Shown: positions 41,232 through 44,934 of the stretch, piece by piece
Position numbering within the stretch: the stretch's first letter is position 1
How the letters are laid out: each line of letters begins with the position of its first letter
Assembly (NCBI GenBank): GCA_964016885.1
Contig: OZ024745.1
Location: 98,580,001-98,644,000, forward strand
Length of the DNA: 64,000 nt
Direction: 5' to 3'
DNA from: Eledone cirrhosa
Lineage: Eukaryota
The notes under the pieces: generated by a model
What the model saw: the letters and a program-made list of their open reading frames with translations, nothing else
Databases searched by the model: none
Told to the model about the DNA's origin: nothing
Position numbers and translations under genes: made by a program

Positions 41232-44200
41232 CATCATCATCATCATCATCATCACCGTTTTACGTCCGTTCTTCCACGCTAGCATGGGTTAGACGGGTTG
41301 TCCTGTTGTGGGCAGTGTCTGGTCGGCTGACCATGCCTTGCTCATACAGGAACTGATCTGGCTTGATTTCTACAGCTGGATGCCCTTCCTAACACCAACC
41401 TCATTTACAGTGAGTGCTGGGTGCTTTTTCGTGGCGCCTACACGTCCACTTTACAGTGTGGGCTGGGTGCTTTTTTGCCGTGGCACCTCCACGACCACCT
41501 TGCGGTGGGGGGGGGGGCATATTGTTTATATGCTTCAGCATGTACCCATGGGAGGTCGGGTACCCTGTATTACTGCGTGACGCCAGAAGTCACGGTCGTG
41601 TGTCATTGACTTTGAGAGGTGTAGTTGGGTAAGGTCGGCTTTTATCACCTCATCCCAAGTCATCTTGGGTCTCCCCACTCCGCGGTTTCCATCAACTTCT
41701 AGTGCTCTGCACCTTTTTATGCAGCTGTCATCCTTCATACGCATCACATGTCCATACCAGCGTAACCGCCTCTCCTGCACGCAGCATTTGATTCCTCTTA
41801 TGCTCAGTCTCTCTCTCAATTCATTTATGCTTTGTCGTTCACGTATATTACTGTTACACATCCATCGGAGCATGCAGGCTTCGTTTCTCTCTAATCTACG
41901 TAAGTCTTCCACCTTCAGCGCCCAGGTCTCACTACCATGCAACATCGCTGTTCGGATACACGCATCATACAGTCTGCCTTTCATTCTGAGGGAGAAGCCT
42001 TTTGCAGCTAGCAGTGGTAGTAGTTCCCTAAACTTCTTCCATCCCGTTCTTACCCTAGTTATTGTACTTTCTGAGCACCCACCTCCGTTGCTAATTCGGT
42101 CACCTAGGTAGCAGAAGCTGTCTACTGTTTCTACAGGGCCCTCCCAGAGATTGGTGGTACTTGTTTCCTGTGGCTGTTTGCTTGCTGTTTCAGCACAGCT
42201 GCTGCATGTGAATCCTACATTCTTAATTAAGCTTCCTGAGATCCCGCTACATCTCTTGTGTACCCATTGTTTGCATTTGGGGCAAAGAATGGAGTTCCTA
42301 CCTACACCTTTCCTACATACTGAGCAAGGCCATTTCCCTGAGGGGATCTGGGTTCTGTTTTCTCGTCTACTTATAAGGACCTTAGTCTTTGTCATGTTGA
42401 CTTTGAGGCCCTTTCTCTCTAGTCCCTGCTTCCAGGTTTGGAATTTATTCTCTAGTTCTACCATAGATTCAGCTATGAGTGCGAGGTCATCAGCATACAG
42501 GAGTTCCCATGGGCATCCGGTCTTAAACTCCTCCGTTATTGCCTGCAGGACTATGATGAACAGGAGAGGGCTAAGAACAGAGCCCTGGTGGACCCCAACC
42601 TGTACGCTAAATTCCTCGCTATACTCATTGCCAATCCTAACTTTGCTGACTGCTCCCCTATACATGGCTTGTACCGCTTTCACAAGCCATTCATCTACTC
42701 CTAGTTTTCTAAGAGCCCACCAGATTACTGCACGTGGAACTCTGTCAAAGGCTTTCTCAAGGTCGACAAATGCCAAGTAGAGTGGCTTACTTTTAGCTAG
42801 GTACTTTTCCTGTAATTGCCTCACAAGGAAGAGCGCATCAGTGGTGCCTTTCCCTGGAACAAACCCAAATTGCATCTCGTCTATATTCACCCGGTCCCTA
42901 ATCAGCTGTGCTATAACTCTTTCTGTTACTTTCATGACCTGGTCCATCAACTTTATACCTCTATAGTTTCCTCTATCTAGTGCATCGCCTTTACCTTTGT
43001 AGCAGTTGACAATGATGCTACTGCACCAATCTTTTGGTATGGCCCCCTCTAGTATTACCTGGTTAACGATACGTGTGGTTATAGTGTGACCTACAGACCC
43101 AGATGCCTTCAGCATCTCGGCAGCTATACCCGATGGACCGGTTGCCTTCCCTATCTTCATATCTCTGATTGCCTTACTTACTACGCTGCCGCTGACTTGT
43201 ACTGCTGGTCCCTCTATAGGGTCTACGTGGGGTAGGGTCTCTTCTTCCCATGCATTCTCCTCATTTAGTAATCTATCATAATGACTCTTCCATGCATCTT
43301 TCTTCTCAGCACTTGTGAGGGCAAGCTCACCTTTATCATTCCGGATACACTTCTCTCCAATGACATCACAACTATCTCTGACACACTGCCTCGCAATCTT
43401 GAATACCTCCTGTTTCTGGTCCTCACGTTGTAAAACATGCTTGAATTTTCTATCCTCTGCTTCCCTCCTAGCTAAGTATACTTGTCGCCTAGCTTCCCTC
43501 TTGGTCTCTATGTAATGTACCCTGCTCCCCCCGTTCTTCCATTCTTTCCATGCCTGTCTCTTGGCCTTGACTGCTTCATCTACCTTATTGTTCCACCACC
43601 AAGTCACTCTCCTCCTGCTTGAGGTCTTACTCCAGCCACAAACCTCATCCGTCGCCTCTAGTAAGTTATTTTTTAGGAACTCCCAGTTCTCTTCTACGTT
43701 AAATGTCTCTATCTGTTCTTCTTTACTGTCGTAGGCGTTGAGTAAAATATCTTTAAATCTGTTACTGGTTGAGGGGACTTTCAGCTTCCAGATCTTTCTT
43801 CTCCAGGTTGGCCTCTGTTTCAGGGCTCGTCTAGTTCTGACCGTGAGGTCGCTGACAACTAAGCTATGTTGGGATGTACATTCCTCACTAGGGAAGGCTT
43901 TTGTGTTTACGACCGTCCATCTGTCACGTCCTCTGATGAGAATAAAATCTAACTGACTAGAGTGCTCCCCTGATCTATAGGTGATCAGGTGGTTGTCGGG
44001 TTTTTTAAAGTTTGTGTTACATATCGACATGTCATTGGCGTCGCAGAATTCTAGAAGTCTGAATCCTTCCTCATTCCTTGTGCCAACTCCATGGCCTCCA
44101 TGTACTCTATTGAAGCCGTCGCAGTGTTTACCTACGTGTCCGTTAAAATCTCCTGCAATGATTAGGAAGTCCTTGTCGTCTGTTAGAGCAGTAGTGTGTA

Positions 44201-44934
44201 TTAGGGACTCGTAAAACCTATCCTTAAGTTCGTCTGGCAGCCCCGATTGGGGTGCGTAAGCTGATATTATTGTGGTAATTGTCTTATTCAGGACTAGTCT
44301 GAGTTTAATGATTCTTGCATTTACCCTGTACACTGAGATTACTTTATCTACCCACTTGTCAGCTAATAGTATACCTACACCACCCATCCCATCGTCATTT
44401 CCCACCCAGAAAAATTTGTAGCACTGGCTTTTTCCTACAAGGACTCTAGCAGACCCTCCTCTCCATCTAGTCTCTTGCACACAGCATACATCAACTTCCT
44501 TTCGCTCTAGCATTTCTACGATTTCTCCTGCTCTTCCTTTCATTGAGCCTACATTGATGGTACCAACTCGGAGTTTTGGGCATTTGTCGACACTCGTAGG
44601 GGAGGGTCTCTGGGTTGGCGCTTCACGTGGGTGCTTGGTAGCTCGCAGATTCATATTTCATCTATTGATTCAGAGTTGCTCGTGTATTCCCAGCTCATCC
44701 ATCCATAACGGTGGGAAAATTGAGGGCTAGAAGGACAGTGGTGGTGGGGTAATGGCAGGGTGTGTTGGGATGCGCCAGAGGAGGAGAGAGTTAGTTAGGC
44801 AGGTAGTAGCAGCAGCAGCAGTGGAAATGGCATGCTAGGTTTGATTGGTCGAATAGACTATGGTGGTGTGTGGGGGTGGGGGGGAGGGAAATTGTGAGGT
44901 AGGAACTGAGGGTCGCATGGTAAATATCCAAGTC
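41232..44934 (-). mobile_element. Full-length, ORF-intact RTE LINE (family B)
   Basis: ~280 bp 5' region, 1039 aa ORF, ~300 bp 3' UTR, (GAT)n tail; both flanks are (TA)nCA arrays. Confidence 0.97.
41535..44654 (-). CDS. RTE polyprotein: APE endonuclease + reverse transcriptase + PHD-type zinc finger (1039 aa)
   Basis: TINVG, CVQETRW, SAYAP, GDFNGH, LDFIL, SQH (APE); YKGKGD, NYRGI, QFGF, FVDLEKAFD, GVHQGSVLSP, YADD (RT); CSVC-x10-CPKC-x4-H-x2-C-x14-[21 protein letters not shown]. Confidence 0.97.
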   Translation of the reverse strand: MNLRATKHPREAPTQRPSPTSVDKCPKLRVGTINVGSMKGRAGEIVEMLERKEVDVCCVQETRWRGGSARVLVGKSQCYKFFWVGNDDGMGGVGILLADKWVDKVISVYRVNARIIKLRLVLNKTITTIISAYAPQSGLPDELKDRFYESLIHTTALTDDKDFLIIAGDFNGHVGKHCDGFNRVHGGHGVGTRNEEGFRLLEFCDANDMSICNTNFKKPDNHLITYRSGEHSSQLDFILIRGRDRWTVVNTKAFPSEECTSQHSLVVSDLTVRTRRALKQRPTWRRKIWKLKVPSTSNRFKDILLNAYDSKEEQIETFNVEENWEFLKNNLLEATDEVCGWSKTSSRRRVTWWWNNKVDEAVKAKRQAWKEWKNGGSRVHYIETKREARRQVYLARREAEDRKFKHVLQREDQKQEVFKIARQCVRDSCDVIGEKCIRNDKGELALTSAEKKDAWKSHYDRLLNEENAWEEETLPHVDPIEGPAVQVSGSVVSKAIRDMKIGKATGPSGIAAEMLKASGSVGHTITTRIVNQVILEGAIPKDWCSSIIVNCYKGKGDALDRGNYRGIKLMDQVMKVTERVIAQLIRDRVNIDEMQFGFVPGKGTTDALFLVRQLQEKYLAKSKPLYLAFVDLEKAFDRVPRAVIWWALRKLGVDEWLVKAVQAMYRGAVSKVRIGNEYSEEFSVQVGVHQGSVLSPLLFIIVLQAITEEFKTGCPWELLYADDLALIAESMVELENKFQTWKQGLERKGLKVNMTKTKVLISRRENRTQIPSGKWPCSVCRKGVGRNSILCPKCKQWVHKRCSGISGSLIKNVGFTCSSCAETASKQPQETSTTNLWEGPVETVDSFCYLGDRISNGGGCSESTITRVRTGWKKFRELLPLLAAKGFSLRMKGRLYDACIRTAMLHGSETWALKVEDLRRLERNEACMLRWMCNSNIRERQSINELRERLSIRGIKCCVQERRLRWYGHVMRMKDDSCIKRCRALEVDGNRGVGRPKMTWDEVIKADLTQLHLSKSMTHDRDFWRHAVIQGTRPPMGTC

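Follow-up and report, generated by a model that had tools for sequence, protein, structure and literature searches.

The element and its architecture

The window analysed here, a 64,000-nucleotide stretch of the Eledone cirrhosa genome (GCA_964016885.1, contig OZ024745.1, positions 98,580,001 to 98,644,000), contains on its reverse strand a long interspersed nuclear element (LINE) of RTE type that carries a PHD finger within its reverse transcriptase (RT). The element comprises the following features, given in window coordinates.

41535..44654, reverse strand: single open reading frame (ORF) of 1039 amino acids, with APE endonuclease, tower, RT fingers and palm with the inserted PHD finger, thumb and wrist (translation, Pfam, model against L1 ORF2p)
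43839..44573, reverse strand: APE-type endonuclease, residues ~28-272, motifs QETRW, GDFN, SQLDFI and SQHSL (Pfam PF03372/PF14529, structure match)
42372..42986, reverse strand: RT core RVT_1, residues 557-761, with YADD at residues 720-723 and motif 6, LKVNMTKTK, at residues 750-758 (Pfam)
42195..42332, reverse strand: PHD finger, residues 775-820, C4HC3, in the probable RT 6a loop (Pfam, ligands, model)
42102..42116, reverse strand: RT motif 7, FCYLG, residues 847-851, where the RT picks up again past the insert (sequence)
41232..41534, reverse strand: 3' untranslated region (UTR) with terminal (GAT)7 tail (sequence)
44655..44933, reverse strand: proximal 5' UTR, ending at this copy's 5' cut at 44933 (comparison with sister copies)

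Positions 41535-44654 translate on the reverse strand into 1039 amino acids closed by one stop, Pfam assigns Exo_endo_phos to residues 32-172 and RVT_1 to residues 557-761 (E 8e-32), and the (GAT)7 tail at 41232-41252 marks a complete 3' end. A first-pass annotation, made from the letters of the window, had described an uninterrupted ORF with APE and YADD motifs and a complete 3' end, and this description held. We take QETRW, GDFN, SQLDFI and SQHSL to be the catalytic motifs of the endonuclease, and LKVNMTKTK and FCYLG to be RT motifs 6 and 7, with which an alignment to L1 agrees. An AlphaFold2 model of the whole protein (70-row alignment) has a mean pLDDT of 86; its residues 26-1038 align to residues 6-1065 of L1 ORF2p (Z 27.0, root-mean-square deviation (rmsd) 9.1 over 811 residues), and the predicted endonuclease aligns to that of L1 (Z 24.8, rmsd 2.6 over 223). 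The protein stops where the C-terminal zinc-finger domain of L1 would start, and has no such domain. The element is thus a single APE and RT ORF without an ORF1, preceded by a UTR and, in sister copies, by a tandem array of monomers. Elements of the RTE clade have a single ORF with APE and RT and a short-repeat tail; the RTE label is our presumption from this definition and the architecture, as the tree described below contains unnamed proteins only.

A PHD finger in the probable 6a loop

The finger lies between LKVNMTKTK (from residue 750) and FCYLG (from residue 847), and its eight ligands (C777, C780, C791, C794, H799, C802, C817 and C820) map to window positions 42326-42195. Pfam recognizes residues 777-820 as a PHD finger (PF00628) with 27.2 bits against a cut-off of 24. 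Over the finger the AlphaFold2 model, a predicted rather than a solved structure, has a pLDDT of 79-90. In a sub-model of residues 715-870, PHD matches fall on its residues 58-112 while the flanks match RT folds; the 50 rows of structure matches concur on these two folds, with the modest Z scores of small domains, and include BPTF (Z 6.2, rmsd 2.6, 54 aligned) and Pygo (Z 5.9, rmsd 2.2, 50 aligned). Foldseek found no match to the sub-model at E<=0.001, its top rows being nearly all PHDs. Both the C4HC3 finger first noticed between GLKVNMTKTK and VDSFCYLG and its assignment to the PHD fold were therefore borne out, by the Pfam score and ligands and by the likeness of the predicted model to BPTF and Pygo.

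The site of the insertion is itself informative. In R2Bm, motifs 6 and 7 are separated by the 6a insertion (residues 672-677), which reads the upstream target DNA; when 6a is deleted, nicking is inhibited (PMC10499050; here and below, statements on cited papers refer to the parts of their text covered). L1 ORF2p also has 6a as a palm insertion, and it is a known insertion site in RTs of elements without long terminal repeats (non-LTR RTs) (PMC10830420). The profile match of the present protein to R2Bm stops at R2Bm residues 670-671, opposite query residue ~764 by an offset taken from the L1 alignment, and the finger begins at W775; the flanks in the sub-model align to R2 residues 523-714 (Z 6.3, rmsd 2.5, 81 aligned). 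The finger thus likely occupies the RT 6a loop, where R2 touches upstream target DNA, a mapping made by sequence offsets and range overlap rather than by residue-level superposition with bound DNA.

Distribution and origin of the finger

A homolog search with residues 700-900 returned 285 proteins. Among the best 120 of these, a strict C4HC3 finger stands at the same site in 116 of the 118 parsed sequences (of 121 including the query), and the remaining two have shifted spacing. The spacer between motifs 6 and 7 measures 85-94 residues with the finger and 22-33 in PHD-less relatives, which makes the insert ~63 residues long. The PHD-less relatives came from the best 150 of 106,548 matches in a search of representative proteins, and both searches used finger-bearing queries, which biases them toward finger-bearing matches. 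At an RT-core identity of at least 55%, 24 of 25 assessable relatives keep the finger, the exception containing a broken remnant, and four further relatives are incomplete. A 56-row quick tree of the insert-free RT and thumb sequence (41 of the 94 non-redundant rows with the finger, each of the 15 rows without it), which has long outgroup branches, requires one change of state (SH-aLRT 95), against a mean of 13.4 when states are shuffled. On this sequence evidence the finger is the mark of one widespread RTE-type lineage, with a single origin within the sample.

The named carriers, on which the taxonomic range rests, are the Octopus bimaculoides protein P0002 (60% identical over residues 700-900), in which both the finger and its site are the same, and P0057 of the catfish Neoarius graeffei. 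P0146 is the closest relative without the finger; its RT core is 54% identical and its layout is the same. It and a further PHD-less sister, P0155, have no insert and likewise no C-terminal finger. Judged by these homologs, the arrangement is not unique to the locus and characterizes a large lineage. It is visible in automatic Pfam labels, so that the present locus is a further example of it and not its first sighting. Also present in the E. cirrhosa genome are at least four PHD-less families of RTE type that are older (L071, L074, L077 and L078; L082-L100; L081 and L098; L083 and L097), one of them near P0146 and one with a C2H2-like finger at its end; they lend themselves as controls.

A young family and the state of this copy

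A search of the 3.0-Gb genome with residues 750-860 gave 63,143 candidates; all 150 of those that were scored are 100% identical, and 29 of them stand in a full-length open frame. Exact 30-base probes had 6,349 matches for the finger and 785 for the start codon (reversed controls, 0), a shortfall at the start codon that indicates frequent 5' truncation. These counts bear out the expectation that near-identical sister copies exist. Among the 29 intact-ORF sisters and this copy, the mean difference is 0.25%, a value biased low as the sisters were picked for identity; nine of the 29 encode a protein identical to that of this copy, and the variants that sisters share are 8 synonymous and 4 non-synonymous. 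Nearly all family copies (51 of 53) end in a (GAT)3-9 tail. The thousands of identical copies, together with homologs that have the same junctions, rule out an assembly chimera.

This copy is cut 5' at 44933, whereas 18 of the 29 intact-ORF sisters extend upstream into the tandem array, whose monomers measure 355-490 bp and contain ~86-bp subunits. In the 13 copies traced upstream, the array is ~1 to 6.7 kb long with differing start points. In mouse L1, such monomers act as promoter. If the array has that function here, this copy would be an intact-ORF but promoterless daughter. It is probably not a source element, because it lacks the 5' array of its sisters, and the family is likely the active unit. 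The first-pass view of a potentially active element thus applies to the ORF, the 3' end and the near-identical sisters, and does not extend to the truncated 5' end of the copy at hand. Elsewhere in the genome (G000:C1:422,727,600-422,790,500, L213-L219), the 5' monomer forms an unbroken tandem array of ~63 kb with 169 motif copies, mostly 355-405 bp apart, that leads directly into an intact copy with the 1039-residue ORF; it is possibly a satellite derived from the 5' end of the LINE, or a source locus.

Selection on the finger

All eight ligands are invariant in a 129-row alignment. Across 70 full-length proteins, column conservation of the finger (0.67) lies between that of the endonuclease (0.63) and the RT (0.71), and the finger's two linkers reach 0.45 and 0.38. 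Between families A and B of the window, the finger has a nonsynonymous divergence (dN) of 0.124 at a synonymous divergence (dS) of 1.48, the RT 0.098 at 1.88, and linkers a dN of 0.28 and 0.44, in a comparison whose dS values of 1.5-2.4 are near saturation. With dN/dS at ~0.08, and linkers far less constrained, the finger is by these estimates under strong purifying selection, the outcome of a check proposed in the first pass. Two relatives nearby in the window carry the finger in different states.

36503..39528, reverse strand: family-A relative, ~75% amino-acid identity, frame broken near 38700, finger intact (Pfam, comparison)
50632..51823, reverse strand: family-C relative, broken and 5'-truncated, finger with 7 of 8 ligands (Pfam, comparison)

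The suggestion that the finger is retained in both families applies to A, where all eight ligands are present, but only in part to C, whose decayed copy has lost one of them (the second Cys, now Phe).

These data bear directly on whether the finger could be a neutral passenger in a tolerant surface loop. Insertions at 6a are known from non-LTR RTs (PMC10830420) and PHD-less sisters are successful, both of which would be in keeping with a passenger; invariant ligands, conservation near the level of the RT and the low dN/dS are not, and we regard this explanation as hardly credible.

A Pygopus-like pocket on a basic domain

By sequence, the closest solved PHDs are those of Pygopus (Pygo1/2), others being PHF13, PHF23, MLL, PHF2, TAF3 and BPTF. 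The cage by which Pygo holds methylated H3K4 is made of W366, Y341, D352, V350 and A356, and its E360 is needed for H3 binding (PMC2726290). Y341, V350, A356, I357 and W366 have counterparts in the finger, whose cage positions are W775, V784, S788 and W797. Over 119 fingers of the lineage, the counterpart of Y341 is aromatic in 114, that of W366 is Trp in 117, that of V350 is Val in 113 and that of A356 is Ser or Ala in all 119, so that four of the five cage positions are near-invariant. The equivalents of D352 and E360, in contrast, are not conserved as Asp or Glu (Glu at the E360 position in 8/119). The net charge, judged from sequence, is +8 in this copy and positive in 119/119 fingers (+1 to +10, mean +6.3), whereas canonical histone-binding PHDs are acidic (PMC9640981). 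From residue conservation and charge, the finger retains a Pygo-type pocket, yet its charge is reversed. The PHD of VIN3 shares this positive charge; it does not bind H3 and binds DNA and RNA weakly, and has no aromatic cage of the kind kept here (PMC9640981). A complex prediction that paired the finger with unmodified H3 of this genome (tail residues 2-31), run without alignment or controls, scored 0.00 and carries no weight either way.

This combination of features can be read in several ways. The finger may be a true reader of a histone mark (H3K4me2/3 or another methyl-lysine) that steers insertion to marked chromatin. The near-invariant cage positions and the company of known PHDs to which the finger is closest argue for such a reader, and the loss of the D352 and E360 equivalents and the strongly basic surface argue against it; on sequence grounds we consider it unlikely, and the insertion sites discussed below enter into that judgement.

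The basic charge could instead serve to bind RNA of the element itself (3' UTR or tail) or the RNA:DNA hybrid, which would help cis preference or processivity. An element without an ORF1 or an L1-like C-terminal domain might profit from this; weak binding of RNA and DNA is known for a basic PHD superdomain (PMC9640981), and Pygo-like PHDs occur in LINE ORF1 proteins (PMC4120745). However, the counterpart loop of R2 faces target DNA (PMC10499050), and P0146 and P0155 manage with neither insert nor C-terminal finger, which leaves RNA binding decidedly unlikely. As these sisters lack both, we also reject the idea that the element needs its finger in place of the C-terminal zinc finger of L1.

Finally, the pocket may bind a non-histone host protein, such as a repair or replication factor or a decoyed silencing factor. 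The fold matches include PHDs that, by structure titles, have non-histone partners (Pygo-BCL9, PHF2-VRK1, MLL4-TET3), and a cage kept while the acidic H3 contacts are lost is consistent with a changed ligand. No partner was indicated by the analyses, and the constant length and basic charge fit DNA or H3 more simply, so that we find a host partner quite improbable.

Insertion sites and the role of the finger

At both of its ends, this copy abuts a simple repeat.

40886..41231, no strand: (TA)n-type microsatellite at the 3' junction (sequence)
44934..45247, no strand: (TA)n-type microsatellite at the 5' junction; target-site duplication unreadable (sequence)

Across the family, 32/51 copies have a TA run no more than 20 bases from the tail, against 12% of random positions, as do 5/10 copies of a PHD-less RTE family; these counts omit copies without a readable 3' end (2/53 and 2/12, respectively). 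TA-repeat targeting as the role of the finger was rejected on these figures: the preference is common to PHD-less RTEs and is therefore not due to the finger.

The wider surroundings were compared over the 10-kb flanks of 40 ORF-length copies (from the first 100 on contig C1), 40 evenly spaced intervals and 20 PHD-less RTE copies, the last of which are older and lie on other contigs. Median observed/expected CpG ratios are 0.48, 0.68 and 0.64, respectively (rank test, p=0.10), and 22/40, 12/40 and 6/20 flanks fall below 0.5 (Fisher p=0.04, with a cut-off chosen post hoc). A further PHD-RTE piece lies within 10 kb of 27/40 copies, against 11/40 intervals (p=0.0007) and 5/20 PHD-less copies (p=0.003), and 29 of 99 gaps between copies are shorter than 300 kb where 9.7 would be expected. 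Copies thus share regions, yet selection against insertions or nesting into earlier copies could explain the clustering. Regional clustering and the lean to CpG-poor flanks would be in line with a histone-mark reader, but the lean is not significant by rank test (p=0.10), and CpG-poor DNA would suggest methylated gene bodies rather than H3K4me3 promoters.

We favour, at a probability of about one in two, a role of the finger as an accessory tether that would keep the RT at its target chromatin while target-primed reverse transcription proceeds. With its basic face, the finger would touch target DNA beside the nick, in the manner of the R2 6a loop, and the pocket with its Trp and other aromatic residue may add weak binding of a methylated lysine, for example H3K4me. 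Such a tether would raise the efficiency of insertion or bias it regionally; it would not set the site, because PHD-less sister lineages transpose without a finger. This proposal builds on what the analyses established, namely the fold, the position, the single origin within the sample, the purifying selection and the recent mass copying of the family. The kept pocket, the positive charge and the regional clustering of copies speak for it as well. Weighing against it are the TA preference shared with PHD-less elements, the weak CpG contrast and its post hoc cut-off, the other possible causes of clustering, the missing D352 and E360 equivalents, the VIN3 precedent of a basic PHD without H3 binding, the finger-bearing queries of the homolog searches and the offset-based mapping to 6a. 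The first-pass idea of a chromatin- or nucleic-acid-guided targeting module therefore stands as far as position is concerned, which suits a role at the target, and is not supported in its claim of steering, given the shared TA preference and the weak CpG lean.

A bolder reading, possible though doubtful, is that this LINE lineage built a chromatin reader into the palm of its polymerase and picks insertion sites through a methyl-lysine mark and nucleosomal DNA jointly. If true, this would match, on the non-LTR side, the integrases of LTR elements that are guided by chromodomains, and the 6a loop would be a portable slot for targeting domains. The insertion site of APE-type LINEs is usually attributed to the endonuclease (PMC10499050); a folded reader domain under purifying selection inside the RT suggests an additional layer of insertion control. 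The compact 1039-residue protein makes the role of the finger testable by single mutations. The family is among the main recent writers of a 3-Gb genome, and its preferences would shape the landscapes of genes and repeats. That an RT 6a loop tolerates a domain of 60 residues is also useful for the engineering of retrotransposon gene writers.

Several observations at other junctions concern the insertion process itself. A script detected a clean target-site duplication away from TA runs in only 1/43 copies, and by eye a 7-bp duplication was seen in copy L054. One copy of 43 (L053 with L222, G000:C1:59.59 Mb) is flanked on either side by a target-site duplication of ~48 bp with TA runs inside it, an arrangement suggesting that the insertion process can add (TA)n. 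Copies L060 and L049/L226 have an inverted copy of the 3' flank at the 5' junction (at least 100 bases in L060, 16 in L049), which points to fold-back or a template switch on insertion. Five copies (L029, L042, L044, L045 and L046; G000:C1, ~7.5-9.1 Mb) lie in one minisatellite region with a ~20-bp unit.

Relation to known systems

The element shares with RTE-clade LINEs the single ORF with APE and RT, the (GAT)n tail and the 5' truncations, and differs from them in the ~63-residue PHD insert between motifs 6 and 7 and in the 5' array of 355-490 bp monomers. The first-pass annotation had pointed to a brain-expressed RTE LINE reported in Octopus. RTE-2_OV of Octopus vulgaris and the RTE consensus of O. 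bimaculoides are likewise of RTE type, with a single ORF and signs of recent activity, but the protein of RTE-2_OV has 1109 residues and a C2H2 finger (PMC9115989), whereas the present one has 1039 residues and no C2H2 finger; length and finger type rule out identity with RTE-2_OV. The covered text of that paper does not mention a PHD finger, the only match to "PHD" being a fellowship.

R2Bm likewise has an insertion between RT motifs 6 and 7, at the position occupied here. In R2 it is a six-residue loop that reads bases of a fixed rDNA site (PMC10499050), whereas the present APE element, which lacks a fixed site, has an entire zinc domain there. PHDs have been described in LINEs of the CR1/L2 groups, where the top structural matches are also Pygopus (2vpb, 3zpv) and a genome-targeting role was proposed; unlike the present finger, they lie in ORF1 or N-terminally, ahead of the endonuclease, and not inside the RT (PMC4120745), and the likeness noted here is one of fold. 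A full-text literature search, whose scope did not extend to subscription papers or Repbase Reports, gave no description of a PHD inside a LINE RT in the titles, the opening lines of abstracts or the text covered, PMC3849965 and PMC12503042 included. The element is a real variant of RTE-type LINEs, and apparently an undescribed one.

Other features of the window

The first pass had placed the element in sense orientation to a putative host gene, with possible co-transcription. This was not supported, since none of the 144 non-repeat ORFs of at least 55 residues in the window rose above a Pfam cut-off, a search that shorter exons would escape. Directly adjoining the family-C copy at its 3' end is a (TA/CA)n microsatellite of ~5 kb (45407-50730). 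A further RT-bearing element, apparently of a different non-LTR family, is represented by GC-rich fragments at 29347-32332 and 27130-27616, with a weak RVT_1 match at 30653-31138, and a long minisatellite with strong G skew spans 22000-26000.

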